From: an uncultured Thermoleophilia bacterium
Lineage (GTDB): Bacteria; Actinomycetota; Thermoleophilia; UBA2241
Assembly: GCA_963832655.1 (NCBI GenBank)
Contig: CAWHUW010000005.1
Location: 342,359-406,358 of the forward strand
Length of the DNA stretch: 64,000 nucleotides
Reading direction: 5' to 3'
Both the position numbers and the translations under genes were made by a program. The notes below the pieces were generated by a model. The model was not told the origin of the DNA and ran no database searches. It worked only from the letters and a program-made list of their open reading frames with translations. The first letter of the stretch is position 1. Each line of letters opens with the position of its first letter. Positions 39,820 through 63,785 of this stretch are shown here, in pieces.

Positions 39820-40443
39820 GCGTCCTTCTCCTTCTCGTACCCGCAGGGCGAGTCGATATCCACGAGTTCGTGGGGGTCGTCGATGGGGACCATACAGACT
39901 TCGTCCGCCCGGCGCTCGATGACGCGCCGGCCCCCGAAGTCGCCGCTGCTCCCCGGCAAGCTCGGCGAACAGCGTCGCTCCGACGAGCACGGGGTTGCCC
40001 GGGCGCCCATCCACCGACGGCCGCACGATCCGCTTCTCGCAACGCGCGAAGCGATCGATCAGCGCGTCGAGGAGCGCGGCGCTGACGAAGGGCTGGTCGC
40101 CGAGCAGGATGAGGGCCCCGCCGGCCGCCGGGTCTACCGCCGAGAGTCCCGTGCGCAACGACGTGCTCATGCCTTTCGCGTAGTCCGGGTTCAGCACCAC
40201 GGTGACCGGCCGGCCGGCCAGGGCTTCCGAGATCTTCTCCGCCTCGTTGCCCACGACGACGATGGTCTGCGAGGCCTTCGAGCCCAGCGACGCGTCGACC
40301 ACGCGCTGGATCATCGACCGCCCGCCGACGGGCAACAGCAGCTTCGCGCCCCCCATGCGGGTGGCGCGGCCGGCGGCAAGGACCACGGCCGCAACGACGC
40401 CACGGCCGGCCGCGTGCCGGGACTCGCGCGCCACGTCGCTCAC
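39816..40443 (-). pseudogene. mocA: Molybdenum cofactor cytidylyltransferase-like (MobA/MocA NTP-transferase), one frameshift
   Basis: VAAVVLAAGRATRMGGAKLLLPV and LILLGDQPFV motifs. The family C-terminus (GSSGDFGGRRVIERRADEVCMVPIDDPHELVDIDSP) is in the frame of ORF 39816-40010. The shift occurs in a G4/C4 run at 39951-39954, and the unshifted frame reads through into xdhC. Confidence 0.75.
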
Positions 40444-41291: not shown

Positions 41292-41580
41292 TCACTTCCT
41301 TGACGCTCTCGAGCGCTGTGTGTCGCGCCGAAGCGACACACTCGGCCGGCGGTCAGCCCGAGAACAGCGTTCCCCGGAACCGTAGGGTGGCGAACCGCCT
41401 TGTGTCGCCTCTTGCACATCGGCTTGGCCACAGGCACCATGTCGGTACCGCGACATTGTAGACGGGAACAGGATTCCTTGCTACACATATAGCGAATATG
41501 CGACAATGGGGCTTTCCGCGGGTGCCTTCAAGGACTCCTGGCAGACACTGACGGACCATCTCGGAAGAGAGGTTGCAGGT

Positions 41581-43945
41581 ATGGAATCGCGCTCGTTCGC
41601 GACCGTGGGCGCGGTGACGCGGCGAAAGGACGGGCTGGCGAAGGTCACGGGTGGCGAGGTCTACCCGTCCGACATGATCCTGCCCTATATGCTTGCACGC
41701 ACGCGTCCTGCGGAGCCCCCATCCCCACGCCCGGATCGTGTCGATCGACACGACCGAGGCGGAGAAGATGGGGGCCGTCTGCATCACCGCCGACGACGTG
41801 CCGCAGAAGCGGTACAACGAGCGCCAGGTGAGCATCCCGGCCAAGACCTACCGCGACCGGACCGTCCTGCCGCACGTGGTACGTCAGGTCGGCGAGGGCG
41901 TCGCGGCGGTGGCGGCCAGGACGGAGGCTTTGGCGGAGCGGGCGCTCCGCGCCATCAAGGTCGAGTACGAGGTGCTGCCCGCCGTGTTCGACCCCTACAA
42001 GGCGATGGAGCCCGACGCCCCGCGGCTCTACGAGGACGTCATGCTCGGCGACGTCGAGCTGCCCATCGAGCGCAACATCGCCTGCGAGCGCCAGGTGTCG
42101 GTAGGCGACGTCAACGTGGGCTTCGCCGAAGCCGACCTCGTGGTGGAGCGCGAGTACCAGACCGGCCGCGTCTACCACGCGCAGATGGAGCCCAAGTCCG
42201 TCATGTGCCGGCCGCAGGCGGACGGCGGTATCGAGCTCTGGGCCACGGCGCAGTCGATCCACAACACCCGCCAGCTCCTGGGCCGGATATTCGACATCCC
42301 CCTGAGCAAGGTGATCGTCCATCGCTCCTCCATCGGAGGCGCGTTCGGCTCGAGCATCCAGATGAACACGCCGATCGCCATCTGCGTGGCGCTCGCCCTC
42401 AAGGCGCGCAAACCGGTCAAGCTCGTGCTTACGCGCGAGGAGGACATGTACGACCACTGCAAGTACCCCGCCATCATCAGGCTGAGGTACGGCGTCAAGA
42501 ACGACGGCACGATCGTCGCCGGCGAGCTGAAGACGCTCGTGGACGTGGGCAGTCATAACATCCAGGGCTATCCGCTGCTCGGCTGTATGTCGGGCTGGTT
42601 CGTCTCGCTGTACCGCATGCCGCACATGAATTTCGAGGGAACGGCGGTGTACACCAACAAGGCGCCGGCGTGCGCCATGCAGGGCTACGGCAACCCGGAC
42701 GTGTCGTTCGCCGTCGAGTCGCACATCGACATCATCGCCGAGAAGCTGGGGATGGACCCGATCCAGCTGCGGATCAAGAACTACGTGGGCCTGGGCGAGA
42801 CGTTCTGGGGCCAGGGACCGACGGTGCGGTCCATCATCCGCAGCTGCGGCGTCGAGGAGATGCTCGAGAAGGGCGCGCCGATGATCGGCTGGAGCGAGCG
42901 CGGGCGTCCCGAAGAGAAGACCGGTCGCTTCCGGCGCGGCATCGGCGTGGGGCGGACGTTCCACACTTCGGGGACCGGCGCCGCCATGCCCGGCGAGGTG
43001 ATCGACTACTCCACCGCGATGGTGAAGGTGAACGAGGACGGCTCCGTCGACTTCTCGACCGCGCTCATGTGCCACGGAGGCGGCACGCTCGACGCCTGCG
43101 CCAAGTTCGTGGCCGAGGAGATGGGCGTGCCGTTCGACAAGGTCGGCATCTCTCCCGCGAGCACCACCGACACCGGCTACGACGTCTGCACGCACGCCAC
43201 CCGCGGCGTCTACTGCGGCGGCGGGTCGGTCGTCGAAGCGGCGCGCTCCGCCAAGGCGCGCCTGCTCGAGTTCGCCTCGCGCCTGATCGACGTCAACCCC
43301 GAGGCGCTGCAGATAGCGCCCGACCCGGAGACGGGGCAGGGCGTCATCTTCCTCGAGGGCGCGGCCGACAAACGGATCACTGTCGCCGAGGTGGCCAAGA
43401 CGGCCCAGCTCAAGGGCTGGGGGACGGCGATCGCCGTCGAGAGCCACCGCATGGTCAACTGCCCGCCGTGCTTCGTGACCAACTTCGTCGAGGTCGAGGT
43501 CGACACCTGGACTGGCGAGGTCGAGGTCACGCGCGCCGTCTGCGCCGTCGACGCCGGCACCGTGGTGAACCCCGACCTGGCCGCCGGTCAGCTCGAGGGA
43601 GGCCTCTGCAGGGGCATCGCGCAGGCGCTCCTCGAAGACACCGACTACCGCCCGGACACCGGCGAGCTCACCTGCGGCGGCACGTACATCGACTACAAGC
43701 TGTACACCGCCGCCGACATGCCGCCCGTCAAGGACGTCAAGACGTTCTTCGCCACCACGTTCGAGCCCTCGGGCCCGTTCGGCGCCAAGGGCATCGGGGA
43801 GGCGGCGAACAACGCGGTGGCCGCCGCCGTGATGAACGCCCTCTCCAACGCGCTCGGCATCCGCTTTCAGTTCATCCCCATCACGCCGGAGATGATCCTG
43901 GCCGCGATCCACGGCTGGTCGTGCCGGGGGGTGATCCCGGAATGA
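41581..43945 (+). pseudogene. Xanthine dehydrogenase family molybdopterin-binding large subunit (set 1), 1-nt frameshift after codon 37
   Basis: The N-terminus MESRSFATVGAVTRRKDGLAKVTGGEVYPSDMILPYM (frame of ORF 41506) continues as LHARVLRSPHPHARIVSID in ORF 41693-43945. One extra base lies between ATG-C-TTG at about 41692. The remaining 750 codons are intact (GGAFGSS, RGIAQAL, GAKGIGEAA). Confidence 0.85.
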
Positions 43946-44832
43946 GCGCGCCGGTCATCAACACGAGGGTCCTGGTCAACGACTTCGAGTACATCCTGGC
44001 GTCATCCCTCGACGAGGTGCTCGCGCTTCTCGACAAGCACGGCGAGGACGCCAAGGTCCTCGCCGGTGGCACGGACCTGGTCATCCAGATGAAGCTGGGC
44101 CGCCGCGCGCCGCGCCTCGTGGTCGACATCTCCAAGCTGGAGGAGCTCAAGCAGCTCGACGTCGGCGAGACGGTCCGCATCGGCGCCGGTCGCCGCTACA
44201 TCGACGTCCTGCGGTTCCTCCGGGAGCTGGGCTGCTACCACGGCCTCGCCGAGGCGATCGAGGGCATCGGCAAGATCCAGGTGCTCGCCGTGGGCACCGT
44301 GGGAGGCAACCTCAGCAACGGGTCGCCCGCGGCGGACACGGCGCCGCCGCTCCTCACCTATGACGCGCGCGTCCGCGTGATGAGCGCCCACGCCGAGCGG
44401 GTCATCCCGCTGCGCGAGTTCTACACGGGCCCCGGCGCGACGGTGATGGCGCCCAACGAGATCATGATCGGGGTCGAGTTCGACGCGTTCCCCGACGGCC
44501 GCGCGGGCGCCTTCCAGAAGATCGCCCGCGTCGCCTGCGACATCTCCAAGCTCACCTGTGCCGTCGCCGTGCAGCGGGACGGCGAGACCTGCACCCACTG
44601 CCGTGTCGCGCTCGGCGCCGTGGCGCCGACCCCGGTGCGGGCGCACGCCGTCGAGGCGGCGCTCGAAGGCCGGCAGATCGACGCGCACGTCGTCAGCGAG
44701 TGCGCCGCCCTCGTCGACGAGGACATCTCCCCGATCAACGACATCAGGTGCGGCGAGCTCTACCGCAGGGAGGCAGCCGGGGTCCTGTTCAGAGATGCTT
44801 TCGCGACAGCATGGGAGCGTGCAAGATGCTGA
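43942..44832 (+). CDS. Molybdenum hydroxylase FAD-binding medium subunit (set 1)
   Basis: Motifs LAGGTDLVIQMK, VGTVGGNLSNGSPAADTAP and a CO-dehydrogenase flavoprotein C-domain. The ATG overlaps the upstream stop (ATGA). Confidence 0.85.
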   Translation: MSAPVINTRVLVNDFEYILASSLDEVLALLDKHGEDAKVLAGGTDLVIQMKLGRRAPRLVVDISKLEELKQLDVGETVRIGAGRRYIDVLRFLRELGCYHGLAEAIEGIGKIQVLAVGTVGGNLSNGSPAADTAPPLLTYDARVRVMSAHAERVIPLREFYTGPGATVMAPNEIMIGVEFDAFPDGRAGAFQKIARVACDISKLTCAVAVQRDGETCTHCRVALGAVAPTPVRAHAVEAALEGRQIDAHVVSECAALVDEDISPINDIRCGELYRREAAGVLFRDAFATAWERARC

Positions 44833-45356
44833 CCACCTGCTCCAACGCCATCGTCCTCAACGTCAACGGCGAGGACCACATGCTCGTGGTCGAGCCCAAC
44901 GAGCTGCTCATCAACGTGCTGCGCAACGAGCTCGGTCTGACCGGCGCCAAGTACGGCTGCGGCACGGGCCAATGCGGCGCCTGCACCGTGCTCGTCGACG
45001 GCGAGCCCGTGCTGAGCTGTATCACCCTCGCGGTCGCCGTCGACGGCAAGGAGATCGTCACGATCGAAGGGGTGGCCGGGCCCAACGGAGAGCTCACCCC
45101 GATCCAGGAGGAGTTCCTCGACGAGAACGCCGTGCAGTGCGGCTTCTGCACTCCCGGCATGATCCTTGTGGCGGGCGACCTGCTGCGCCGCAATCCCCAC
45201 CCCACCGAGAGCGAGATCCGCCACCACATCAAGGGCAACATCTGCCGCTGCACCGGCTACAACGGCATCGTGCGCGCGATCCAGAAGACCGCGAAGCTGC
45301 AGGAAGAGCTGGGCGGCGACGGCATCGCCGACCGGGAGAAGGAGGTCTCGCGGTGA
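44826..45356 (+). CDS. Molybdenum hydroxylase (2Fe-2S) small subunit (set 1)
   Basis: Motifs CGTGQCGACTV, CGFCTPGM and CRCTGY. Confidence 0.9.
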   Translation: MLTTCSNAIVLNVNGEDHMLVVEPNELLINVLRNELGLTGAKYGCGTGQCGACTVLVDGEPVLSCITLAVAVDGKEIVTIEGVAGPNGELTPIQEEFLDENAVQCGFCTPGMILVAGDLLRRNPHPTESEIRHHIKGNICRCTGYNGIVRAIQKTAKLQEELGGDGIADREKEVSR

Positions 45357-46291
45357 CTGACACGCGCTATCTGCGCCCCCGGAGCCTGAAGGAAGCGCTG
45401 GAGATGATGGGGGAGCACTGGCCCGGGGCGAAGCTCCTGGCAGGCGGGACCGATCTGATCCCGCTCTTCCGCGCGGCGAAGTACTCCAGCGACTCGAGCT
45501 CGGCCAGCCTGGGCCTACAGGGCGGCTGCAAGTGCGGTGATTGCCGGATAGAACCCTTCCCCGACGTGCTCGTCGACGTCGGCGACCTGGATGAGATCAA
45601 GGGGATACGCAGGAACGATGGCGTTCTCGAAGTCGGAGCTGCGACCGTCATCGCCGATATCGCCTCGGATCCGCTTCTGAACGAGACGGTCCCTATCCTG
45701 GCCGATGCGGCCAGGTCTATCGGCAACCCTCTCGTCAGGAATCGGGCCACGATCGGGGGCAACCTTGCCACTGCCGCCCCCTGCGCCGATACGGCGCCAC
45801 CTCTCCTCGCCCTCGATGCGATCGTCCAACTGGCGAGCCCTGAAGGCCGACGAGAGATGCCCATAGCGGACTACTTCCTCGAGTACCGGACCACCAGCCT
45901 TCGGGAGACCGAGATGATCGAAGGTCTCCTCATTCCCATCCCTTCGGAGGAGTGGGCTGGAGGCTTCGAGAAGGTCAGATTGAGGAGGTCCGGCGCCATC
46001 AGCGTCGCGTCCGTCGCCGCGATGGTGCAGTCAGACGGAGCGACGTGTCTGAGCGCGAGGGTCGCCCTGGGCTCGGTCGCGCCGATCCCGCTGCGCGCGG
46101 CGGCCGTCGAGGCGGCCCTCGAGGGACGGCGCATCGACGCTGAACTCGTCATGGACTGCAGCAGGCTCGTGCAACAGCACATCTCCCCCATCGACGATCT
46201 CCGCGGCTCAGCCGAGTACCGGAGATGGGTGACGGAGGCGGTCGTCGCTCGGACCCTCTTGAGGGCGGCCGGGATCGAGGGGACGAACTGA
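45353..46291 (+). CDS. Molybdenum hydroxylase FAD-binding medium subunit (set 2) with a Cys-rich insert
   Basis: Motifs LAGGTDLIPLFR and ATIGGNLATAAPCADTAP. GTG 45353 overlaps the upstream stop (GTGA) and follows GAGAAGGAGG. An extra segment, YSSDSSSASLGLQGGCKCGDCRIEPF, lies after the first FAD motif. Confidence 0.85.
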   Translation: MTDTRYLRPRSLKEALEMMGEHWPGAKLLAGGTDLIPLFRAAKYSSDSSSASLGLQGGCKCGDCRIEPFPDVLVDVGDLDEIKGIRRNDGVLEVGAATVIADIASDPLLNETVPILADAARSIGNPLVRNRATIGGNLATAAPCADTAPPLLALDAIVQLASPEGRREMPIADYFLEYRTTSLRETEMIEGLLIPIPSEEWAGGFEKVRLRRSGAISVASVAAMVQSDGATCLSARVALGSVAPIPLRAAAVEAALEGRRIDAELVMDCSRLVQQHISPIDDLRGSAEYRRWVTEAVVARTLLRAAGIEGTN

Positions 46292-46779
46292 TGGGAAGCT
46301 ACAGCATTGCGATCAGTGTGAACGGTCAGTGGATGAAGACAGAAGTGACCGCCCTCGACACGCTTCTGGAGGTCCTGCGCAGCAAGTTCGGGGCGCTCGA
46401 CGTGAAGAGCGGCTGTGGCCAGGGCGATTGCGGGGTCTGCACGGTGCTCCTCGACGGCGTCGCCGTCAATTCCTGCCTGACCCTGGCCGTTCAGGCCGAC
46501 GGCAGAGAAGTGACGACGCTGAAGGGGCTGGGCACGCCCGACGACCCCCACCCTCTGCAGGAGAGCTTCGTGAGGCACGGCGCGATCCAGTGCGGCTTCT
46601 GCACGTCGGGGATGGTGCTCACCGCCAAGGCCCTTCTCGACGAGAACCCGACTCCGTCGCGGAGCGAGATAAGGGAAGCCATCTCCGGCAACATCTGCCG
46701 GTGCACGGGCTACACGAAGATCGTCGACGCGATCGAGGACGTGGCCGGGCAGCGCGAGCGCGTGGGGAGGCGGTCCTGA
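46291..46779 (+). CDS. Molybdenum hydroxylase (2Fe-2S) small subunit (set 2)
   Basis: Motifs CGQGDCGVCTV, CGFCTSGM and CRCTGY. The ATG shares one base with the upstream TGA. Confidence 0.9.
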   Translation: MGSYSIAISVNGQWMKTEVTALDTLLEVLRSKFGALDVKSGCGQGDCGVCTVLLDGVAVNSCLTLAVQADGREVTTLKGLGTPDDPHPLQESFVRHGAIQCGFCTSGMVLTAKALLDENPTPSRSEIREAISGNICRCTGYTKIVDAIEDVAGQRERVGRRS

Positions 46780-49208
46780 TGGCGACCACGATCCAGACTC
46801 CTGGCCACGAGACCGTCTCGCCGCCGGCAGACGCCCAGGGGTCCGCGTACAAGATCATCGGGCGGCCCATGCCGCGTCACGACGCTCGTGACAAGGTGTT
46901 CGGCCAGACGAAGTACGCCGACGACTTCGAGTTGCCCGGGATGCTCTACGGCAAGGTGCTGCGCAGCGAGCACCCAGCCGCGAGGCTGCTCGCGATCGAC
47001 ACCAGCGTCGCCGAGCACATGCCCGGCGTGCGGGCGGTGCTCACGGCCAAGGACGTCCCCTGCAACGAGACCACCAGCAAGTTCGGGCAGACCCACTCGG
47101 CCGGCGGGTTCGAGGGCCTTTACCGCGTCCTCGCGGACGGCAAGGTCCGCTATATGGGCGAGGCGGTGGCGCTCGTCGCGGCCGAGACTCTGGAGCAGGC
47201 GGAACGCGCAGCCAGAGCCATCCGCGTCGACTACGAGCCGCTGCCGGGGGTGTTCGATCCCATCGAGGCCATGAAGCCGGACGCCTACCGGGTCGGAGAA
47301 GAAGACACGAACGTCGTCTGCACCTACAAGGTCCGCAAGGGAGACGCCGAGCAGGCCCTCGAGGACGCGGACGTCGTCGTGGAGAACACCTACCGCGTCC
47401 CGTTCGGGGACCACGCGTACCTCGAGCCTGAATCCGGCGTCGCCTGGATCGACGAGGACGGGGTCATCACCATCCGGGCCTCGACTCAGGTCATCGAGCA
47501 CTTCCGCGATGTCGCCGACATCCTGAAGGTACCCCACAACAAGGTGAGGGTCATCGCCCCCATGCTGGGCGGCGGGTTCGGCGGCAAGGAGGACATCACC
47601 GTCGAGGCCTACCTCGCGCTGCTGACGAACAAGACCAAACGTCCGGTGAAGCTGACGTACACGAGGGAGGAGTCCCTTCTCGCCCACTCCAAACGTCATC
47701 CGTACTTCATGACGTACCGGACGGGAGCCAGGGCGGACGGCACGCTGGTCGCGATGGAGGCCGAGCTCGTCTCCGACGCGGGAGGCTACGCCTTCCTGAG
47801 CCCTTGGGTCCTGCTCTACTCCACCGTCTGCGCGACGGGGCCGTACAAGATGCCGCACGTGAAGGTCGACAGCTACGCGGTCCTCACCAACAACACCTTC
47901 ACCAGCGCCTATCGAGGCTTCGGCGCGCCGCAGGTGTGCTTCGCCTACGAGCTCCAGATGGATGCGCTGGCCGCCAAGCTGGGCCTCTCGCCGCTGGAGT
48001 TCCGCCGGCGCAACTACCTCCATACCGGGGACGAGACGGGGACGGGCCACGCCGTGCAGACCGCAGTCTGGACCGACGAGACGGCCCAGCAGGCGCTGGC
48101 GGCGCTGGGTGAGCCGTCACCGCCACGGTCGTCGCGGGAGAGGGTCGGCCGGGGGCTGGCGTCGGGCATGCAGAGCTACGGCAGACTGATCTACATGCAC
48201 GATTCCTCGCGCTCGTTCGTCGGCTTCGAACTGGACGGCACGGTCGTGGTGCGCTGCGGTGTCCAGGACATCGGAGGCGGTCAGGCGTCCTCTCTCGCTC
48301 AGATCGCGGCAGAGGTGCTGGGCGTCACGATGGACGACGTGACGGTCTACTTCGGCGACACCGCGTTGACGCCGCTGGCCGGCACGACGACCGCCACGCG
48401 TCAGCTCTACATGTCGGGCAATGCGACGCTGAAGGCCGCGAGGGCCGTGAGGGACGAGCTGGCCAGGAAGGCCGGCGAGATCCTCGGCGTCGACCCCGAG
48501 CGGCTCGAGTTGAGAGACAAGGCGTTTCACGTGCTCCCGGCCGACGGACTCGAGGTCGCTGCGGGGGGTAAGGGTCAGGACGCGCTCCAGTCCGGACAGT
48601 TGCCGCTGAGAGAGGCGCTGAAGGCTTGCGCCTCGGCAGGGGTGCCGCTGGGCAACCTCGCGCAGTTCAACGCGCCCGCTCGGGAGGTGGGCGACGTGCA
48701 GAACGTGCACGGCCAGATCTTCCCGGACTTCACTTTCGGCACGCACGCCGCGGAGGTGGCCGTCGACATCGACACGGGGCAGGTCGAGGTGCTCAAGTTC
48801 GTGGCGTCGTTCGACGTGGGGCAGACGATCAACCGGCTGAGTGCCGAAGGCCAGCTCGAAGGGGGGTCCGTCTGTGGACTGGGCTACGCTCTCCTCGAGG
48901 ACCTCAAGCTGAGCGAAGGAAGGACGGTCACGTCGGCGCTCGACACCTATCTCGTGCCGACGTCCATGGATACCCCCGACGTGGTCCCGATCCTGATCGA
49001 GTCCAAGGGAGGTGTGGGGCCGTTCGGCGCCAAGGGCATCGGCGAGCCTTCGTCGACGTCCGGCGCACCGGCGATCGTCAACGCGGTCGCCGACGCGATC
49101 GGCATCTGGATCACCGAGCTCCCGGTCACTCCGGAAAGGGTGCTCAGGGCGCTGAGGGAACGCGACGATGAAGCAGGGCATTCTTCGCAGGGAGACCGTG
49201 CGCCGTAG
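46779..49208 (+). CDS. Xanthine dehydrogenase family molybdopterin-binding large subunit (set 2)
   Basis: Motifs RHDARDKVFGQTKYADD, MLGGGFGGKED, YRGFGAPQ, GGGQASSL and GAKGIGEPS. The ATG shares one base with the upstream TGA. Confidence 0.9.
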   Translation: MATTIQTPGHETVSPPADAQGSAYKIIGRPMPRHDARDKVFGQTKYADDFELPGMLYGKVLRSEHPAARLLAIDTSVAEHMPGVRAVLTAKDVPCNETTSKFGQTHSAGGFEGLYRVLADGKVRYMGEAVALVAAETLEQAERAARAIRVDYEPLPGVFDPIEAMKPDAYRVGEEDTNVVCTYKVRKGDAEQALEDADVVVENTYRVPFGDHAYLEPESGVAWIDEDGVITIRASTQVIEHFRDVADILKVPHNKVRVIAPMLGGGFGGKEDITVEAYLALLTNKTKRPVKLTYTREESLLAHSKRHPYFMTYRTGARADGTLVAMEAELVSDAGGYAFLSPWVLLYSTVCATGPYKMPHVKVDSYAVLTNNTFTSAYRGFGAPQVCFAYELQMDALAAKLGLSPLEFRRRNYLHTGDETGTGHAVQTAVWTDETAQQALAALGEPSPPRSSRERVGRGLASGMQSYGRLIYMHDSSRSFVGFELDGTVVVRCGVQDIGGGQASSLAQIAAEVLGVTMDDVTVYFGDTALTPLAGTTTATRQLYMSGNATLKAARAVRDELARKAGEILGVDPERLELRDKAFHVLPADGLEVAAGGKGQDALQSGQLPLREALKACASAGVPLGNLAQFNAPAREVGDVQNVHGQIFPDFTFGTHAAEVAVDIDTGQVEVLKFVASFDVGQTINRLSAEGQLEGGSVCGLGYALLEDLKLSEGRTVTSALDTYLVPTSMDTPDVVPILIESKGGVGPFGAKGIGEPSSTSGAPAIVNAVADAIGIWITELPVTPERVLRALRERDDEAGHSSQGDRAP

Positions 49209-52669: not shown

Positions 52670-54055
52670 CTATGACACCGCCCGCCTGACGAACTGCCCG
52701 CGCGCCTCTCCCAGCGGCTCGCGGTCGGTCATGACGACCGAGCCGCGCAGGAGCGAGACGACGGGGGAGCCACGCAGCTCCATGCCTTCCAGCGGAGTGT
52801 GGCGCTGCACGCTGTGCAGCCGGTCGCCGCGGACCGTCCACTGCACGGACGGGTCCACGAGGGTCATGTCGGCGTCCGCACCCGGCTGGATCACGCCCTT
52901 GCGCGGGTACAGCCCGTAGAGACGGGCCGTGCCCTCGCTCAGCACCCAGCTCAGGCGCTCCGGCGTGATCCGTCCGGCGCACATGCGATCGATCATGAGC
53001 GGCGCCATCACCTCGACCGCCACCATGCCCGCCGGAGCAGTCGCGAACGGCTTGGACTTGTCGGCGAGCGTGTGGGGAGCGTGATCCGATCCGAGCGACG
53101 CGATCGTCCCGTCCCTGACCCCCCGCCAGAGCGCCTCGCGGTCGGCATCCTCCCGTACGGGGGGGAACGCCTTCATGGCGGAGTCGCGACCCTCGCAGTC
53201 ACCGGCCACGAAGAGCAGGTAGTGAGGGCAGGTCTCGGCCGTGACCGTCACGCCGTCGCTCTGCGCCAGCTGCACGAGGTGCGTGGCGCGCGCCGAGCTG
53301 ATGTGACACACGTGGAAGTGCGCGCCCGTCGCTCGCGCCAGCTCGATGCCGAGGGCGACGGAGCCGGCCTCCGCCACGTCGGGCCGGGCCGCCGCCAGCT
53401 CGGCATACCGCTCTGGCGCGTGGCCGAGCTGCCTCTGGGCGACGTCCAGGATGTCGCGGTCCTCACAGTGCGCCGCGAGGATCCCGTCCGCGCGGGCGAT
53501 CTCCTGGAGGATCTGCATGACCTCGCCGGTCGTGGCCGGCGGGATCACGTCGTCGCTGTCACCCGTGTTGTAGACGAGGCGCTTCGACTGCCGGTCCAGG
53601 GCGTAGCCCCAGAACAGCTTCATCGCCACGGCTCCCTCAGCGAAGAGACCCATGATGTCGCCGAGATTCTCCAGGCCGAGCGACAGCGCCCAGAGGCCGA
53701 AATCGACGAAGGCGACCCTCCCGTGTTCCTCGGCCCGCTCGCGGAACGAAGCCACGTCGGTCACGGGAGGGACGGCGTTCGGCATGACCAGGATCGTCGT
53801 GACACCGCCGGCCGCGGCCGCACGCGTCGCGTGCGCGAAGTCCTCTTTGTGCGTGTCGCCGGGGTCGCGCGCATGAAGGTGGGGATCGATGAAGCCGGGG
53901 AAGACGAGCAGGCCCGACGCGTCGAGCCGCTCGTCCGCCTTGGCCGCTTCGCCGGCGTCGAGGAGGGCGACGATGCGCTCGTCCTCGCACAGGACGTCCG
54001 CCCTGCGCTGTCCGTCCGGCGACACGACCGTTCCGCCTTGGACCAGGAGTCTCAT
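52670..54055 (-). CDS. Cyclic amidohydrolase (dihydroorotase/allantoinase/dihydropyrimidinase family)
   Basis: Motifs PGFIDPHLHARDPG, AMKLF (carbamylated Lys context), AAHCED, HVCHISS and LGSDHAPH. ATG 54055 has a GGAGG RBS. Confidence 0.85.
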   Translation of the reverse strand: MRLLVQGGTVVSPDGQRRADVLCEDERIVALLDAGEAAKADERLDASGLLVFPGFIDPHLHARDPGDTHKEDFAHATRAAAAGGVTTILVMPNAVPPVTDVASFRERAEEHGRVAFVDFGLWALSLGLENLGDIMGLFAEGAVAMKLFWGYALDRQSKRLVYNTGDSDDVIPPATTGEVMQILQEIARADGILAAHCEDRDILDVAQRQLGHAPERYAELAAARPDVAEAGSVALGIELARATGAHFHVCHISSARATHLVQLAQSDGVTVTAETCPHYLLFVAGDCEGRDSAMKAFPPVREDADREALWRGVRDGTIASLGSDHAPHTLADKSKPFATAPAGMVAVEVMAPLMIDRMCAGRITPERLSWVLSEGTARLYGLYPRKGVIQPGADADMTLVDPSVQWTVRGDRLHSVQRHTPLEGMELRGSPVVSLLRGSVVMTDREPLGEARGQFVRRAVS

Positions 54056-54294
54056 CCGCCGCCTCCGTCTCGAGCAGGGACCGCCAACGAGCGGGTACTC
54101 GCCGCTGCGAGAGACCCGCGTCATCTCACCTTCGTCGTTGCCACGGCTCAGCGAGCGGCGGCGTCTCCAGCATACTGCGCGCACGCCGCGGCCGGCTCGC
54201 GTACCCCGCGCCGGAGTGGCGGAGCCGGAGCTTCCCTCCGCCGAGGCGCGCGACGTCCCCCGGCGCAGCCGCTTTGGCCATCAGCGGCGCGAGG

Positions 54295-55878
54295 TTAGAG
54301 GACGGGCCCGGCTTCCGCGACCTCGCGCGGCACGCGGCCGTCGTACTGCGCGAAGTTGGCCCGGAACTCCTGGGCCAGCTTCGCGGCGGCGGCGTCGTAT
54401 GCTGCCGGATCATGCCACCCCTCCCGGGGATCGAGCTTGCGGGGCGCCACGCCCCGACAGCCGACGGGCACCAGGACCTTGAAGACCGGGTGAGGCGCGC
54501 ATTGCACGTCGTCGAGGGCGCCGTCCAGCGCAGCCTGGAGCAGGCGCCGGGTGAAGGCGATGCTCATCCGCGCGCCGACGCCGTAGGGACCGCCGCTCCA
54601 GCCGGTGTTGACGAGCCAGCAGCGCACATCCCCCGAGGCGAGCCGTTCACGCAGCATGGACGCATACACGACAGGGTCCCGCGGCATGAAGGGGGCTCCG
54701 AAGCACGTCGAGAAGGTCGGCTGCGGCTCCTTCACGCCGGTCTCGGTGCCCGCGACCTTCGACGTGAACCCCGAGAGGAAGTGGTAGCTCGCCATCTCGG
54801 CGGTGAGCTTCGAGATGGGCGGCATGACGCCCATGGCGTCGCACGTGAGGAAGAAGATGTTGCGCGGCAGCCCCGCGGTGCCATCCGTCACCGCGTCCGG
54901 GATATGCTGCACCGGGTACGTGGCGCGCGTGTTCTCGGTCACCGAGTCGTCGGCCCAGTAGACCGACCTCGTCAGCGGATCGACGACCACGTTCTCGAGG
55001 ACGGAGCCGAAGCGGAGCGCCTGGTAGATCTGCGGCTCGGCCTTCGACGACAACCTGATGACCTTTGCGTAGCATCCCCCCTCGAAGTTGAAGATGCCGT
55101 ACTGGCTCCAGCCGTGCTCGTCGTCCCCTACCAGGCGGCGGTGCGGGTCGGCCGAGAGAGTGGTCTTCCCCGTCCCGGACAGCCCGAAGTAGAGCGCCAC
55201 GTCGCCCTTGCGGCCCACGTTCGCCGAGCAGTGCAGCGGAAGGACGCCCCGGGGCGGCAGCAGGTAGTTCATGATCGTGAAGACCGCCTTCTTCATCTCG
55301 CCCGCGTACATCGTCCCGAAGATCAGGACCATGCGACGGCTGAACGAGATGCCGATGAACACCGCCGAGCGCGTACCGTCGACGTCCGGGTCGGCGTGAA
55401 GGGCGCCGCAATCGACGATCGTGAACCCGGGCACGAAGCCTTCCTGCTCGATCGGGATGGGCTGCAGAAAGAGCGTCTGGGCGAAGAGGGCGTGCCACGC
55501 GGTGTCCGCGACCACCCTGATGGGCAGACGATACGCCTTGTCGGCGCCGGCATAGCCGTCGAACACAAACACCTCGCGACTGTGAAGGTACGTGCTCGCC
55601 TTGCGCAGCATGTGGTCGAAGAGCTCGGGTGTGCACTGCTGGTTCACATCGCTCCAGGCGACGTCGTCCGCGGCGGGCTCGTCCACGATGTACCGGTCGG
55701 CCGGCGAACGGCCCGTGCGCGCTCCGGTCTGTACGACGAGCGCGCCGTTGGCGGCCAGGATGCCCTCTTGCCGGGCGAGAGAGCGCGCCGTGAGCTCGGC
55801 CGCCGGCAGGTTGCGGTGCACGCTGCCCACGGTGAGGCCGATGTTCTCCAGCTGCGCGCGGGCCTGCACGTTCTGCAT
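54295..55878 (-). CDS. pckA: Phosphoenolpyruvate carboxykinase (ATP)
   Basis: Motifs TGRSPADRYIV, FGLSGTGKTTLS, LVGDDEHGW and NTGWSGG. ATG 55878 has a GGAGGG RBS. Confidence 0.9.
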   Translation of the reverse strand: MQNVQARAQLENIGLTVGSVHRNLPAAELTARSLARQEGILAANGALVVQTGARTGRSPADRYIVDEPAADDVAWSDVNQQCTPELFDHMLRKASTYLHSREVFVFDGYAGADKAYRLPIRVVADTAWHALFAQTLFLQPIPIEQEGFVPGFTIVDCGALHADPDVDGTRSAVFIGISFSRRMVLIFGTMYAGEMKKAVFTIMNYLLPPRGVLPLHCSANVGRKGDVALYFGLSGTGKTTLSADPHRRLVGDDEHGWSQYGIFNFEGGCYAKVIRLSSKAEPQIYQALRFGSVLENVVVDPLTRSVYWADDSVTENTRATYPVQHIPDAVTDGTAGLPRNIFFLTCDAMGVMPPISKLTAEMASYHFLSGFTSKVAGTETGVKEPQPTFSTCFGAPFMPRDPVVYASMLRERLASGDVRCWLVNTGWSGGPYGVGARMSIAFTRRLLQAALDGALDDVQCAPHPVFKVLVPVGCRGVAPRKLDPREGWHDPAAYDAAAAKLAQEFRANFAQYDGRVPREVAEAGPVL

Positions 55879-55908
55879 GACGCCCTCCGCTGTCGTCGGG
55901 ACCGGGGT

Positions 55909-56883
<975 letters not shown>

Positions 56884-57048
56884 CGGAATGCCTCCTCCAC
56901 TCATTGGAAGTACGGTGGGGCATCATCCCACACTAGCTATATGTATAGCAACGTCTCGCGCATGACCACACTGGCTATTGTCTTCGAACAGATCGGGGAC
57001 GTCCACGAACGCGAGTACTCCTGGTTCGGTCTGCGGAAGCTGACGCGC

Positions 57049-57098
57049 GCGGGTCCGCCTCGCGGTGCGCCGAAACCGGCGCCGCGAGGCGGACCCGC
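57049..57098 (-). terminator. Long GC-rich hairpin after the MtmB-like gene (candidate terminator without a U-tract)
   Basis: 17-bp perfect inverted repeat GCGGGTCCGCCTCGCGG ... CCGCGAGGCGGACCCGC. Further pairing is possible in the 16-nt spacer. It lies 26 nt downstream of stop 57124. Confidence 0.5.
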
Positions 57099-57123
57099 AG
57101 CTTGCGCCGTGGATCAGACGCTT

Positions 57124-58515
57124 CTACAGCACCGAGTAGTCGATGCCGAGCTTCTGGATCTCTTCCTTCTTCTTGCGGTACATGTCGACGTAGAAGTCCA
57201 GGGGCTTCACGCGATCGAGGTCGTAGAGCTCGCTGAACGTCTTGCCGAGCGGGGCGTTCGGGATATCGCCACCGTACCTGGCAAGGATCTCCTTCACCAC
57301 CGTGTTGGCCTGGGCGCGGGTCATGCCCGACTTGGCGACGGCGTGGCACGTCTCGGCGCCGAGCCTCAGCTCCAGTGTCCCGATGTGCTCGGGGTTCTTG
57401 TCGCGGGCGATGCCGCCCTGGACGCTGTGCGCACCCGAGACCGTGTGCGCGATGGCGCCGTTGACCATCTCGTAGAACAGCATGTCGGTGGCCGGTCCGC
57501 CGGCGGCCATGGTGGTGCAGACGTTGAGCATGTTGCTGTTGCGGGCGATGGCCTGGCAGTACACGCTGACCAGCCAGAGCATCGGCAGAGTCGTGCTGCA
57601 GGTCTCACGGATGTCGATAGGGAAGCAGATGTGGTACTCGACATCGAAGGCGAGCAGCCCGAGGAAGAAGTGGGCGATCTGGACCAGCATCGTCCCTTCC
57701 GGGCCGCCGGCGTACCCGCCCATGAGCGGTCCGTAGAGCCCGGCCAACCCGAATCCGCACTCGCGCTGGAAGGCGACCTTGCTCATCCGCTCGTAATCGA
57801 CCTTGAGCTCGGCGATGGCGCCGTTCTGCGTGACGTCTCTGCGCAGCGCGCCGAAGGCCGGGTGGACGGACGCGATGATCGAGGCTGTGCTCTCGCCGAC
57901 CGACACGTGGGCGTAGAGCCCCAGCCCAGGCCGCCCCGCCAGCCGCGCCGCCTCACGGCGCTTGGTGATGTCCCACATGCACGCGGCGACCTCGACCGGA
58001 TGCCCGGACTTGATCGGGATGCCGCGGAACGTGTCATGAAGGGACACGCAGCAGAAGGCGTCCGCATACTGCTCCTGCGCCTGCGCCAAGCAGACTTTCG
58101 GGAACAGGTCCTGCTTCACCGGGACGCCGAGGTGAGAGAAGATGCAGGTCGGCGGCTTGGGGTCCTCGACCATCCGGGGACCCATGGTGTGCTGGTCGCG
58201 ACCCTCGCCGAAGACGTACTGCTTCTTCGCGTGCCGCACCGCCTCCTCGACCTCCTCGCGCGTGAAGCGCACGGCGCGCTGCGTGCTCGTGCAGTAGAAG
58301 CCGGTGGCTACGAACAACTCCAGGGCCGCCTGGTACGCACGGTCGGCGAGGCCGTCGTCGCTCGGCACGGCCGTCTCTCCATCGAAGTGGATGTCGTACT
58401 TCTCGATCAGCGCGCGCACGTTCTGATAGAGCATGGCGTCGAAGTCCGACTCCTTCATGCGCTCGCCGTGCGAGGTTCGCTCAACCACATCCCAGAAGGT
58501 GACCACTTCCTCCAC
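57124..58515 (-). CDS. Monomethylamine methyltransferase (MtmB) family protein lacking pyrrolysine
   Basis: Colinear with my recollection of Methanosarcina MtmB over the full length: GFYCTSTQR vs GIYCTDTHR, LAGRPGLGLY vs MAGRPGMGV-Pyl, PLMGGYAGGPEGT vs PIFGGYAGGIEET, GKTFSELYD vs GKTFQECYD. The 463-codon ORF has no internal stop. GTG 58515 or GTG 58506 is the start. Confidence 0.8.
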   Translation of the reverse strand: MEEVVTFWDVVERTSHGERMKESDFDAMLYQNVRALIEKYDIHFDGETAVPSDDGLADRAYQAALELFVATGFYCTSTQRAVRFTREEVEEAVRHAKKQYVFGEGRDQHTMGPRMVEDPKPPTCIFSHLGVPVKQDLFPKVCLAQAQEQYADAFCCVSLHDTFRGIPIKSGHPVEVAACMWDITKRREAARLAGRPGLGLYAHVSVGESTASIIASVHPAFGALRRDVTQNGAIAELKVDYERMSKVAFQRECGFGLAGLYGPLMGGYAGGPEGTMLVQIAHFFLGLLAFDVEYHICFPIDIRETCSTTLPMLWLVSVYCQAIARNSNMLNVCTTMAAGGPATDMLFYEMVNGAIAHTVSGAHSVQGGIARDKNPEHIGTLELRLGAETCHAVAKSGMTRAQANTVVKEILARYGGDIPNAPLGKTFSELYDLDRVKPLDFYVDMYRKKKEEIQKLGIDYSVL

Positions 58516-58605
58516 TCCTTTCGTCAGTGCGAGACCGGACCGTGCCCGCGGCTACTGCGGACGACGTGATGATCCGGGGTCGCAGCAAAGCTGACTCGGA
58601 CCTCG

Positions 58606-59277
58606 TCAACCGACCAGGTTCTTGGCGACCTCGATCGCAGCGAAGGCGTCCTTCGCGTACCCGTCGGCGCCGATCTCGCGGGCCCAGTCCTCCGTGACCG
58701 GGGCTCCCCCGACCATGACCTTGAAGTCCTTGCGCAGACCGGCCTCGGAGAGCTCCTCGATGAGCTCCTTCATGTACATCATCGTCGTCGTCATCAGCGC
58801 CGAGACGCCGATGATGTCCGTCTTCTCGTCCTCCGCCTCCTTGATGATGGTGGCGACCTTCACATCCCTGCCGAGGTCGACGACGTCGAAGCCGGCCGTC
58901 GACAGCAGGATCCTGAGGATGTTCTTGCCGATGTCGTGAACGTCACCCTGAACGGTGGCGACGATCACCTTGCCCGGGCGGTTCTCGGCGGCCTTGTCGG
59001 CCGGCATCGCCTCCTCGAGAACGGCGATGCCGGCCTTCATCGCCTCCGCCGCAAGCATCATGTCGGGGAGGAAGAGGCTTCCGTCCTCGAAGCCCTTGCC
59101 CACGACCTGCATGCCTGGAGCGAATCCCTCCTGGATGGCCTTCAGGGGCTCTACGCCCGACTCCAGCGCTTTCTTCGCGAGGTCGACGCACGCTTCTTTG
59201 TCCCCTCGGACCACCGCATCCTTCATCTCGTTGAAATCCGTCACCGCCACGACACCTCCATTCGACTCCTTGCCCAC
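58606..59277 (-). CDS. Cobalamin-binding corrinoid protein (MtmC/MtbC/MttC-like)
   Basis: B12-binding cap domain plus the DxHxxG motif (GDVHDIGKN), SALMTTT and GGAP. GTG 59250, 4 nt after GGAGG, is an alternative start. Confidence 0.85.
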   Translation of the reverse strand: MGKESNGGVVAVTDFNEMKDAVVRGDKEACVDLAKKALESGVEPLKAIQEGFAPGMQVVGKGFEDGSLFLPDMMLAAEAMKAGIAVLEEAMPADKAAENRPGKVIVATVQGDVHDIGKNILRILLSTAGFDVVDLGRDVKVATIIKEAEDEKTDIIGVSALMTTTMMYMKELIEELSEAGLRKDFKVMVGGAPVTEDWAREIGADGYAKDAFAAIEVAKNLVG

Positions 59278-59447: not shown

Positions 59448-60152
59448 CTACGTGCCGGCGTCCGCAGTCTCGATGAGCGTCGCGTAGCGAGGGTGATCGT
59501 TGCCGGAGTCGCCCGCGCCCGCCGCGTTGTGCCAGACCCAGACCGCCCGGGCGGGGACATCGCCGGCGTTCCAGAACCGGTGGGGGGCGCTGGAGTCGAA
59601 CGCGATCGAGTCGCCGACCTCGAGGTCGAACTCGGCGAAGCCGATGGCGCCCCCCAGCCGCCCCTCCAGGACCAGGCCGTACTCCCAACCGTTGCGGCGA
59701 AAGAAGTCGTCGCCGTCGTGACCGCCGACCTCGTAGACGTACTCGACGAACTCGAATCCGTCCTCGATCGCGGGGATGAGCATCTCCCACTTGACTCCGC
59801 CCGGCAGGGAGATGCCGCGGCGGTCGGCAGACCGCACGATGCGGCCCGGCCACGGTCCGATGTCCGCCGTGTTCAGCGATGGTGTATCGGATGTCGCGGC
59901 GGCGAGGAGGTCGTCGAGGGACAGACCCAGCTCTCTGACCATGCTGAAGAGCGTGTGCACGGACGGGCTGGTCACGCCGCGTTCCACCTGCGAGATGTGG
60001 CTGGGCGAGCATCCCAGCCTGCCGGCCATCTCGCGCACGCCGATGCCTGAGGCCTCGCGCGCGCGGCGAAGGACTCGGCCGAGGGCCTCCAGGGGTATGT
60101 CGTGCGCGGACTCGGCGCTCGCGGTCTGTGGCTGTTCACTCACAGTGCACAT
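59448..60152 (-). CDS. XRE family transcriptional regulator with a C-terminal cupin domain
   Basis: HTH segment GVREMAGRLGCSPSHISQVERG. Cupin-like C-terminal half (GDSIAFDSSAPHRFWN). Confidence 0.8.
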   Translation of the reverse strand: MCTVSEQPQTASAESAHDIPLEALGRVLRRAREASGIGVREMAGRLGCSPSHISQVERGVTSPSVHTLFSMVRELGLSLDDLLAAATSDTPSLNTADIGPWPGRIVRSADRRGISLPGGVKWEMLIPAIEDGFEFVEYVYEVGGHDGDDFFRRNGWEYGLVLEGRLGGAIGFAEFDLEVGDSIAFDSSAPHRFWNAGDVPARAVWVWHNAAGAGDSGNDHPRYATLIETADAGT

Positions 60153-60233
60153 CCTGCGCCGAACGTCCGCATATCGTCAAGTACTGAAGAACGGTGACCG
60201 GTGACGCGGCGAAGAGGCGCCGGTCGTGAAGGC

Positions 60234-61094
60234 TCAGACGAGCGCGGCGAGCAGACTCACTCCGACGATGGTGCAGGCCAGCCCCACCCACTGATGGCGG
60301 CGAGGGCGCTCGTGGAGCAGGACGAAGCCGAGGATCACGGCGAACGTGCCGAACTGGGTGCTCGTGACGCTGGCGACGGTGGTCGGGCCGAGGGCGAGGG
60401 CGTTCGTCAGCAGCACGAGGCCGCAGAGCTCGAGCGCGCCGGCTCCTACGGCCTCGACGCGCAGGCCTTTGGGCAGCGCCAGGCCGCCGGTAAGAAGCGC
60501 CGCCGGCAAGGCGATACACAGGGACACCGAGCGCGAGATCGCGGTCTGCGACAGCCAGGAGATGTCGCCCGCGTTGCCGTAGAGCACCATGACGCAGGCG
60601 AAGAGGACGCCGGACGCGAACGCCCACGCCGCGCCCCGCGTCGCGCGGCCGCGACGCCCGTCGGCGGCATCGGGCCTGCCCCACTCCTCGAGCGACGTGA
60701 GGACCGCGCCAAACGCGCAGAGGGCGAGCGCTCCCCCGAGGGCGGGCGTGACCGGCGCGCCGAGCAGCACGAACGCCACCGTCGCGTAGGCGCCCATGAG
60801 CGAGTTGAGGGCCGAGATGAGGCCCAGGTCGCCGACCTGCAGGCCCCGCAGGAGGCAGAAGAAGGCGCCGAAGTAGGCGACGCCGCCGAGCGCAGCCAGG
60901 GCGGCTCCGCGCCACTCGGCGCCCTGCGGGAGACCGTCGACGAGCAGCGCGACCGGCAGGATGATGACGACCCCGGTGATGAGGACCCAGGCGACCTGCG
61001 AGAGCGGCCGCGTCCTGCGGGTGACGCGCTGCGAGATGAGGTCGCTGAGCGCGTACGAGAACGCCGAGGAAAGGCCGGCGAGGATGGTCAGCAT
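60234..61094 (-). CDS. DMT superfamily (EamA-like) transporter
   Basis: Ten-helix hydrophobic translation with duplicated EamA-type halves. Confidence 0.75.
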   Translation of the reverse strand: MLTILAGLSSAFSYALSDLISQRVTRRTRPLSQVAWVLITGVVIILPVALLVDGLPQGAEWRGAALAALGGVAYFGAFFCLLRGLQVGDLGLISALNSLMGAYATVAFVLLGAPVTPALGGALALCAFGAVLTSLEEWGRPDAADGRRGRATRGAAWAFASGVLFACVMVLYGNAGDISWLSQTAISRSVSLCIALPAALLTGGLALPKGLRVEAVGAGALELCGLVLLTNALALGPTTVASVTSTQFGTFAVILGFVLLHERPRRHQWVGLACTIVGVSLLAALV

Positions 61095-63781: not shown

Positions 63782-63785
63782 CGGC

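Follow-up and report, generated by a model that had tools for sequence, protein, structure and literature searches.

The window analyzed here is the whole 64-kb stretch (G+C content, 65-75%) of contig CAWHUW010000005.1 from an uncultured Thermoleophilia bacterium of soil or sediment, an unexpected lineage for the locus described below. Three genes lie in a row on its minus strand, encoding an XRE-cupin regulator, a two-domain B12-binding (corrinoid) protein, and a 463-amino-acid (aa) open reading frame (ORF) of the family of MtmB, the monomethylamine (MMA) methyltransferase of Methanosarcina barkeri. The locus is an intact unit of regulator, corrinoid carrier, and an MtmB relative free of pyrrolysine (Pyl). 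Its features are the following, with the basis of each assignment in parentheses.

57124..58515, minus strand: putative substrate:corrinoid methyltransferase (MT1) of the MtmB family, Pyl-free, Tyr clade (PF05369; 1L2Q/1NTH; AlphaFold2 [AF2] model; ratio of nonsynonymous to synonymous substitution rates [dN/dS])
57913..57915, minus strand: TAC codon for Tyr201, aligned with Pyl202 of M. barkeri MtmB (alignments; TAG column)
58606..59277, minus strand: corrinoid (B12-binding) methyl carrier of the MtmC/MtbC/MtgC type (PF02607 and PF02310; TIGR02370)
58927..58944, minus strand: DxHxxG motif of the corrinoid protein, D112-V-H114-D-I-G117 (motif reading)
59448..60152, minus strand: regulator with an XRE-family helix-turn-helix (HTH) and a cupin domain, weakly PuuR-like (HTH_31/HTH_3 and Cupin_2)
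57047..57101, minus strand: G+C-rich hairpin after the stop codon of the mtmB-family gene (folding versus shuffles)

A preliminary description of this DNA, made from the sequence alone, had taken the 463-aa ORF (57124-58515, counted from the first GTG) to be colinear with archaeal MtmB, and both the profile search and the structure comparison that it had called for bear this out. The PF05369 profile matched the protein end to end (289.7 bits against a cut-off of 25, E = 5e-86, residues 6-458 on profile positions 2-450 of 450), and a phmmer search of the Protein Data Bank (PDB) sequences retrieved the M. barkeri MtmB chains 1L2Q/1NTH (E = 3e-54, residues 8-458). The AF2 model (mean predicted local distance difference test score, pLDDT, 94.2; predicted template modeling score, pTM, 0.93) is a TIM barrel that Foldseek superimposed on 1NTH with TM scores of 0.94/0.95 and a root mean square deviation of 1.7 A over 464 columns. 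All 34 positions that are invariant across the whole MtmB family are kept, and the G+C content at third codon positions (GC3), 0.92, is in line with that of a genuine gene in this genome. The gene is under purifying selection, the dN/dS values against three orthologs being 0.13, 0.24, and 0.29; orthologs in metagenome-assembled genomes (MAGs) of Thermoleophilia and Actinomycetes are 73-91% identical. The NCBIfam library, with which the operon and neighboring proteins were also scanned, holds no model that this protein matched at E <= 0.01, so that NCBIfam lends no support to the name MtmB.

Translation of the gene probably begins at GTG 58506, preceded by AGGAG at a distance of 8 nt; the protein would then have 460 aa, with the key Tyr as residue 198, and would open like its homologs, which start with M-[IV]-x-F-W-D-V. 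For the corrinoid gene, GTG 59250 or 59244 is the probable start. In both cases these starts are favored because of the Shine-Dalgarno spacing and the lengths of the homologs, 460 and 212-220 aa, respectively. Residue numbers below refer to the 463-aa version.

The preliminary description had further placed Tyr201 at the site of the UAG-encoded Pyl202 of M. barkeri MtmB. The Pyl, written as "X" in the PDB sequence, indeed pairs with Tyr201 (GRPGLGL-Y-AHV) in the PDB alignment and in two independent MAFFT alignments, its column being anchored by the invariant GRPG motif, and the Tyr codon at 57913-57915 is TAC as reported. The in-frame UAG at residue 202 by which Pyl-containing MtmB proper (EC 2.1.1.248) is recognized is thereby replaced by TAC (Tyr). 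As the preliminary description had stated, the window shows no pyl genes (none among the roughly 56 genes scanned with Pfam), and ARAGORN found no tRNA in the 64 kb. In the AF2 secondary-structure topology, Tyr201 caps barrel strand 199-200 at its C-terminal end, which agrees with a published account in which a barrel strand anchors Pyl202 (PMC9842639).

To compare TAG with sense codons at this column among homologs, as had been proposed, we surveyed species-representative genomes with two profiles and read every homolog through stop codons. A single in-frame stop was found in 41 Pyl-type genes, each time TAG and each time at the Tyr201 column (…GRPGMG[IV]-TAG-GPETS…), in hosts that include Methanosarcinaceae, Methanohalophilus, Methanimicrococcus, Hydrothermarchaeum, Desulfosporosinus, Dehalococcoidales, and Desulfobacteraceae; every other family member surveyed had a sense codon there. 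As a side observation, the TAG-type mtmB genes of bacteria (loci L125, L126, L129-L136, L147, and L161, in Desulfobacteraceae, Desulfohalobiaceae, Desulfosporosinus, Hungateiclostridiaceae, Bacillota, and Dehalococcoidales) carry a slightly different motif after the TAG, G[NS]ETSL or GPETPLT. Uninterrupted homologs number in the hundreds, with at least 560 loci in the species-representative genomes.

In a 170-sequence alignment and the neighbor-joining tree built with it, each clade had its own residue at the Pyl column: His in 63 genes, Pyl (TAG) in 42 (the 41 genes read plus the M. barkeri MtmB1 reference), Tyr in 22, Val in 11, Met in 10, Gln in 9, Lys in 7, Cys in 3, and Trp, Ile, and Leu in 1 gene each. 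That the TAC codon lies one substitution away from TAG, which the preliminary description had offered as a hint, did not hold up as an evolutionary trace. Each clade uses both synonymous codons (TAC 13/TAT 9, CAC 36/CAT 27, CAG 5/CAA 4, AAG 1/AAA 6), so that the closeness to TAG has no evolutionary meaning; among the 128 non-Pyl genes, only 29 have a codon that differs from TAG by a single substitution, and the Tyr clade does not adjoin the Pyl clade in the tree. TAC at Tyr201 simply reflects the GC3 of 92%.

By sequence, the window protein falls in a monophyletic Tyr clade of Thermoleophilia, Spirochaetota, and Desulfobacterota, in which all 22 of 22 genes have Tyr at the Pyl column. After the Thermoleophilia and Actinomycetes, its nearest relatives are those of Spirochaetota and Desulfobacterota, with 58-63% identity, and it is 27-32% identical to the Pyl-type enzymes. 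The Tyr clade branches among other non-Pyl clades (His, Cys, Trp). Five residues that are invariant in the Pyl clade, E183, E205, E259, E273, and N234, are D182, S205, L260, G274, and A235 in the window protein, which therefore lacks the active-site set of Pyl-type MtmB (these and others); the residues of the Pyl clade were reportedly found to contact Pyl in the work of Hao et al. from 2002. The Tyr clade instead fixes E208, R243, H282, Y294, F298, and Y348. Of the 24 positions that discriminate the clades, 15 map to the barrel strands or directly behind them, in a zone that accounts for 22% of the protein length (P = 1e-5), and this concentration at the strands and their C-terminal ends argues that the substrate pocket has been rebuilt beyond the one residue. 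From the Pyl column on, the window protein reads Y-A-H-V-S-V and its sister subclade Y-A-M-I-S-C, so that H203 and V206 stand where the sister subclade has Met and Cys; the aromatics are Y201, Y294, F298, and Y348. The fixed aromatics together with the carboxylate of E208 and with R243 might fit a cationic methylammonium group, possibly one carried by a molecule with an anionic group as well, which we offer as a conjecture.

Two other groups of Pyl-free genes came up in the survey. Members of the Val/Lys/Gln superclade also occur in Thermoleophilia and Actinomycetota MAGs (L230, L232, L234, L240, and L241), so that Actinomycetota hold at least two lineages of Pyl-free MtmB. On Anaerolineales contig CAYMWP010000010.1 (L088/L118), four full-length Met-clade MtmB paralogs stand in tandem with a corrinoid gene among them, a striking local amplification.

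The corrinoid gene lies 90 nt upstream of the mtmB-family gene, and its product combines PF02607 (B12-binding_2) with PF02310 (B12-binding). It scored 236.3 bits, above the cut-off of 215.3, with TIGR02370, "methyltransferase cognate corrinoid protein," and has the DxHxxG motif at residues 112-117, followed by SxL and GG, in keeping with the DxHxxG corrinoid protein of the preliminary description. The role of DxHxxG in B12-binding domains is known, and His114 is the predicted lower axial ligand of the cobalt. The XRE-cupin protein noted before it (59448-60152, minus strand) matched HTH_3/HTH_31 and Cupin_2, with a weak match to PuuR, and is presumed to be a small-molecule-responsive regulator of the operon; such a regulator also stands beside MtmB/MttB modules in L004, L006, L007, L010, L013, L064, L081, and L245. 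Of the "two-gene operon" of the preliminary description, the pair stands, and it is better described as part of a conserved three-gene unit that in relatives is often joined to a non-Pyl MttB module.

The strong hairpin that had been noted after the operon was also found on folding. It spans 55 nt (57047-57101, minus strand), begins 23 nt past the stop codon, and in a 97-nt stretch gave a minimum free energy of -63.5 kcal/mol (z = -5.3), with 0 of 200 shuffles as stable. It lacks a U-tract, and the terminator scan did not pick it up; it probably marks the end of the transcript or stabilizes it. A SECIS_2 match within it (57067-57121, minus strand; 24.4 bits against a gathering score of 70 bits, E = 0.13) is most likely due to chance, since the gene has no in-frame TGA and the match falls beyond its stop codon, and no cobalamin riboswitch or other RNA element besides this sub-threshold match was found around the operon. 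The three intergenic regions contain no operator-like inverted repeats, and neither a sigma-70 consensus promoter nor a canonical terminator was seen at the expected places, the consensus being uninformative for an actinobacterium of 70% GC.

We then compared the neighborhoods of related genes. In almost every one of 79 loci, the gene just upstream of the MtmB homolog encodes a corrinoid protein. The closest gene order to that of the window is found in L003 (contig CAVPRQ010000009.1 of the uncultured Thermoleophilia MAG MFD00032.bin.2.201), whose nucleotide identity is 94-95% to window positions 57041-64000 and 51930-54215 and 88% over 54284-56902; the identity and common gene order make the source organism a species-level relative of the L003 bacterium. 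A value of 72% identity for L003 was discarded as an artefact of frameshifts in that long-read MAG, the true nucleotide identity being 95%. L003 has two genes without a counterpart in the window, a carbamate-kinase-like gene between mtmB and the carbamoyltransferase gene and a class I/II (aspartate-type) aminotransferase gene between those for phosphoenolpyruvate (PEP) carboxykinase and the amidohydrolase (L003 positions 11440-12908 and 15400-16680); at about 56905-57123 and about 54190-54300 the window keeps short flank remnants. Together with PEP carboxykinase, these genes would form a route from carbamoyl-aspartate through aspartate and oxaloacetate to PEP with a gain of ATP.

In the Thermoleophilia relatives, the unit adjoins genes for an APC permease, a HemL-like class-III aminotransferase, IorAB, and a PaaK-like ligase, and in L001/L010, the closest with 89% identity, it also adjoins a divergent module of XRE-cupin regulator, non-Pyl MttB, and corrinoid protein. 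A corrinoid-MtmB(Tyr)-MttB-corrinoid cassette recurs in Spirochaetota and Desulfobacterota. The contig of L006/L081 is a complete methylotrophy island, with the order XRE-cupin, MTTB, B12, MtmB(Tyr), PotD-like ABC transporter, MtrH, URO-D, B12 (a third corrinoid protein), and RACo. A second methyltransferase (MT2) is encoded beside more distant Tyr-clade genes in L006/L081, L026, L041, and L066, and the activase RACo in L006/L081 and L080. In the Desulfobacterales locus L245, a trio of carbamoyltransferase, carbamate kinase, and amidohydrolase genes stands beside the Tyr-clade gene, and neighbors of the xanthine dehydrogenase (XDH) family occur in L245-L247. Genes within ±8 kb were counted for 21 Tyr-clade and 55 non-Tyr loci of equal mean length, with the following frequencies and P values, which serve as leads only.

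XDH-family large subunit: Tyr, 6/21; non-Tyr, 0/55; P = 2.5e-4
Class-III aminotransferase: Tyr, 6/21; non-Tyr, 1/55; P = 1.4e-3
Carbamoyltransferase of the ornithine carbamoyltransferase (OTCase) family, aspartate carbamoyltransferase (ATCase) type: Tyr, 4/21; non-Tyr, 1/55; P = 0.019
Aldehyde ferredoxin oxidoreductase (AFOR): Tyr, 5/21; non-Tyr, 3/55; P = 0.03
MttB: Tyr, 11/21; non-Tyr, 16/55; P = 0.053

The literature searched contained no mention of an association of the Tyr clade with non-Pyl MttB, class-III aminotransferases, or XDH-family/ureide-catabolic genes. As the neighborhoods suggest, an APC, SSF, PotD-like, or EamA transporter would import the substrate, which would be demethylated, often alongside an MttB-family enzyme, and then transaminated or oxidized.

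The genes of the window that bear on this suggestion, identified in Pfam profile searches that covered about 56 likely genes across the 64 kb, are the following.

60234..61094, minus strand: EamA-family (drug/metabolite) transporter (PF00892; synteny with L003)
about 56050-56904, minus strand: aspartate-carbamoyltransferase-type gene, frameshifted (TIGR00670)
about 54295-55860, minus strand: PEP carboxykinase (family scan)
52670-54184, minus strand: dihydroorotase/allantoinase/hydantoinase-type amidohydrolase (family scan)
36814..49208, no single strand: molybdenum-hydroxylase island (family scans)
34821-36504, minus strand: APC-family permease, in two ORFs (family scan; L002 and L005 orthologs)
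33109-34578, minus strand: class-III (HemL-like) aminotransferase (family scan; L002 ortholog)

The EamA transporter gene lies directly upstream on the same strand, is syntenic in L003, and has counterparts near the operon in L004 and L009; it is possibly associated with the operon. On the other side, directly beside the operon, stand the genes for the aspartate-carbamoyltransferase-type protein, PEP carboxykinase, and the dihydroorotase/allantoinase-type amidohydrolase, a catabolic-looking module (52670..56904) that may be functionally linked to it. An 869-aa ORF at 54295-56904 (minus strand) is a frameshift artefact that joins the carbamoyltransferase and PEP carboxykinase frames, the latter protein probably beginning with MQNVQ…. 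The carbamoyltransferase scored 302 bits with TIGR00670 (cut-off, 237), and its frame is lost near codon 283, with the true C terminus in another frame, so that the gene is either a pseudogene or carries an indel error; the assignment of this protein to the YgeW type was rejected, as NCBIfam gave the aspartate-carbamoyltransferase type. The aminotransferase and permease at 33.1-36.5 kb are 80-86% identical to the products of genes flanking the L002 operon, and the permease matches L005 as well. The molybdenum-hydroxylase island (36814-49208) encodes a MOT1-type molybdate transporter, XdhC with a MocA-like (YqeB-like) maturation protein, YqeC, a 2Fe-2S subunit, a TetR regulator, and two XdhA/PucD-like large subunits of 750 and 959 aa. 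We take it to resemble the ygeV-ygfT/xdh region of Escherichia coli, implicated in anaerobic purine catabolism, and its tie to the operon would be a statistical one.

Several other window genes were noted in passing. The APC permease gene is split into two ORFs, as is a hydantoinase/oxoprolinase B gene at 12355-14180, whose two ORFs overlap, and a GH65 glycoside hydrolase at 26063-27875 is present as two small fragments with an IS481-family transposase gene (24101-24949) nearby; all three cases are due to either assembly indels or gene decay. Position 62001-63215 (minus strand) encodes a flavodiiron/flavorubredoxin-like protein with the ODP metallo-beta-lactamase fold and a weak match to the anaerobic nitric oxide reductase flavorubredoxin, and 61200-61958 (plus strand) a separate protein of the metallo-beta-lactamase fold. 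The flavodiiron-like gene, together with the IorAB-like ferredoxin oxidoreductase of the relatives, suggests an anaerobic or microaerobic lifestyle. A 620-aa ORF at 864-2726 (plus strand) combines DUF2064, radical SAM, and SPASM domains and is either an unusual fusion or two genes run together.

Taken together, we consider it probable that the window protein is a methyl-donor:corrinoid methyltransferase that works without Pyl on a methylated nitrogen compound other than MMA and, as part of the same reading, that the three-gene unit supplies a regulator and the first two components for corrinoid-dependent methyl transfer. The direction of methyl flow, the acceptor, the ligand of the regulator, and the class of substrate are proposed by analogy with three-component corrinoid systems and with MtqB, a Pyl-free MtmB homolog discussed below. 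The XRE-cupin protein would control transcription of the operon in response to a small molecule, and the MtmB-family TIM barrel would bind a methylated nitrogen compound at its C-terminal face and hand an N-methyl group to the corrinoid protein (23 kDa), whose Co(I) would thereby become CH3-Co(III). An MT2 whose gene lies elsewhere in the genome would then move the methyl group on to tetrahydrofolate or a different acceptor, and cobalt oxidized to Co(II) would be repaired by an ATP-dependent activase, its gene likewise lying elsewhere. The substrate would most likely be an amine that needs no Pyl adduct, i.e., a quaternary or otherwise cationic or tightly bound N-methyl compound, and the enzyme would probably work alongside a non-Pyl MttB-family enzyme in a stepwise demethylation, after which the skeleton would be transaminated or oxidized.

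Several observations weigh against this reading. As the preliminary description had stated, the window shows no MT2 (URO-D, MtrH, or pterin-binding MtgA/MetH type) and no RACo/RamA activase among the roughly 56 genes scanned with Pfam; of a three-component system, the window thus contains the putative MT1 and the corrinoid protein, with MT2 and RamA/RACo activase absent. The window also has no gene of a one-carbon (C1) pathway, and in the three Thermoleophilia relatives neither an MT2, an activase, nor a C1-pathway gene was found within 10 kb. With none of these nearby, a complete pathway in the source organism is putative. An MT2 need not adjoin, however, since the split MtgB/C/D systems of aerobic marine bacteria use a remote MT2 that is common to methionine synthesis (PMC12478193). 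The window also has no MttB gene near the operon, and its aminotransferase/permease pair is about 21 kb away. The function of the Tyr clade is predicted from genes alone, the closeness of the clade-specific residues to Tyr201 is read from the barrel topology of the model, and the enrichment P values ignore the kinship of the loci and rest on small counts.

The preliminary description left the substrate open, and so do we, MtqB being the only family member with demonstrated activity. This non-Pyl MtmB homolog of Methanococcoides methylutens Q3c methylates cob(I)alamin from choline and tetramethylammonium and has only trace activity with MMA (Kashyap et al. 2026, PMC13044021); the family can therefore act on cationic methylamines without Pyl. 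Conserved Met, Cys, and aromatic residues lie near its ligand, and in a 1,061-sequence tree its clade stands beside the Pyl MtmBs, the remaining non-Pyl clades being "of unknown function" (PMC13044021). The similar size and adjoining corrinoid protein, and the Met and Cys of the sister subclade (Y-A-M-I-S-C), would speak for the window protein as an MtqB ortholog, i.e., a tetramethylammonium/choline:corrinoid methyltransferase. In the window protein itself, however, the Met and Cys of the sister subclade are not kept (Y-A-H-V-S-V), our tree does not put the Tyr clade beside the Pyl clade, where the MtqB clade is described to stand, and no Methanococcoides-named sequence appeared among the 120 best matches (at least 44% identity), others of which bore nr-derived names, or in further targeted genome and protein searches. 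Set apart in this way by the published description and by the names in the match lists, the protein does not appear to be an MtqB ortholog, an identity that we hold to be quite unlikely. A true MMA methyltransferase with Tyr in place of Pyl is what the databases imply by labeling such proteins "monomethylamine:corrinoid methyltransferase," and the fold is nearly identical to that of MtmB; the trace turnover of MMA by MtqB could also be cited in its favor. Pyl, however, is what activates MMA in the established mechanism. The invariant Tyr at the Pyl site, the lack of Pyl machinery in the window, and the replacement, as a set, of the acidic residues fixed in the Pyl clade make MMA a very unlikely substrate, and the low identity to Pyl-type enzymes, the missing NCBIfam match, and neighborhoods that indicate larger substrates (transporters, aminotransferases, MttB homologs) point the same way; we give this explanation very little credence.

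Possible, though doubtful, is the alternative that the protein demethylates a secondary or tertiary N-methyl intermediate, for example the product of an MttB-family enzyme that demethylates quaternary amines or an N-methylated breakdown product of N-heterocycles or ureides, to yield a primary amine for transamination. The B12-MtmB(Tyr)-MTTB-B12 cassettes, with their two separate corrinoid carriers, would fit such a division of labor, as would the enrichment of class-III aminotransferase, XDH-family, and carbamoyltransferase genes near the Tyr clade (6/21, 6/21, and 4/21 loci, against 1/55, 0/55, and 1/55) and the carbamoyltransferase, carbamate kinase, and amidohydrolase genes that stand beside it in both Desulfobacterales (L245) and Thermoleophilia (the window and L003). 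All of this is gene context, however; MttB is frequent near the non-Tyr clades as well (16/55), the partner genes in the window lie at distances of 0.2 to 23 kb, with no clear sign of cotranscription, and Pyl-independent corrinoid demethylation of non-quaternary amines has no precedent bar the trace MMA turnover by MtqB. In its most specific form, which we regard as rather improbable as a whole, the Tyr clade would be a dedicated demethylase for secondary or tertiary N-methyl compounds from the anaerobic breakdown of methylated amines or N-heterocycles, acting after an MttB-family enzyme and before class-III aminotransferases, molybdenum hydroxylases, or aldehyde oxidoreductases. That the pair is a decaying remnant or a non-catalytic paralog, e.g., a regulatory or B12-sequestering pair, could be argued from the lack of a nearby MT2 or activase and from the other window genes that look frameshifted. 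It is hardly conceivable given the intact ORF with dN/dS values of 0.13-0.29, the retained family-wide invariant residues, the full set of cofactor motifs in the corrinoid protein, and the conservation of the unit across species.

Methanogenesis and acetogenesis both draw on the demethylation of methylated amines by corrinoid systems, a process that also rids the gut and anoxic environments of compounds such as trimethylamine, choline, and betaines. Relatives of MttB that lack Pyl form a large toolbox for quaternary amines, and those of MtmB are just as widespread, only one of them with a known substrate. The survey yields a residue-based map of their clades (Pyl, Tyr, His, Val/Lys/Gln, Met, and Cys) with co-varying active-site positions, and the clade-specific neighborhood of non-Pyl MttB, class-III aminotransferase, XDH-family, and carbamoyltransferase/carbamate kinase genes narrows the search for the substrate of the Tyr clade. 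If the Tyr-clade enzymes did demethylate non-quaternary amines, they would provide a Pyl-independent route to chemistry for which methanogens need pyrrolysine and extend corrinoid-dependent methylotrophy to the Thermoleophilia (Actinomycetota); a choline or betaine substrate would be a routine finding.

The feature is real and was correctly read, and Pyl-free MtmB homologs are already described and abundant. The premise of the preliminary description, which was aware of no characterized non-Pyl MtmB-family enzyme, has accordingly been overtaken by MtqB (PMC13044021), by a homolog in strain DCMF (PMC9768040), and by the hundreds of uninterrupted homologs. Two further candidates for comparison were set aside, the chloromethane methyltransferase CdmB, which belongs to the UroD superfamily, and the mlp gene clusters, which concern MtaA-like proteins and not MtmB (PMC10418091).

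With M. barkeri MtmB (1NTH/1L2Q; EC 2.1.1.248), the window protein shares PF05369, colinearity over the full length, the TIM barrel, the GRPG before the key residue, and a partner of the MtmC type. It differs from that enzyme in being 26-27% identical, in its bacterial host, in having Tyr (TAC) for the UAG-encoded Pyl, and in having neither pyl genes nor an MtbA-type MT2 near its gene. Like MtqB, it is Pyl-free, about 460 aa long (MtqB, 459 aa), and has a corrinoid protein of about 215 aa as its genomic neighbor (about 216 aa for the partner of MtqB); MtqB differs in belonging to a methanogen, in which MtbA delivers the methyl group to coenzyme M. Another bacterial Pyl-free MtmB homolog is Ga0180325_111810 of "Ca. 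Formimonas warabiya" DCMF, which dichloromethane induced more strongly than any other protein (Holland et al. 2022, PMC9768040), but the surveyed sequences of Peptococcaceae, the family of DCMF, fall in the Cys/Trp clades and not in the Tyr clade. The enzymes of the MttB superfamily that act on glycine betaine (MtgB), carnitine (MtcB), proline betaine (MtpB), and gamma-butyrobetaine (MtyB) differ in their family (PF06253 versus PF05369) and are only distantly related in fold (TM score, about 0.5). The window protein resembles them as a Pyl-free relative of a Pyl enzyme that would methylate its cognate corrinoid protein, and the bacterial architecture of MT1, corrinoid protein, and, in some cases, MT2 is that of the non-Pyl MttB systems with partners of the MtgC/MtgA type.

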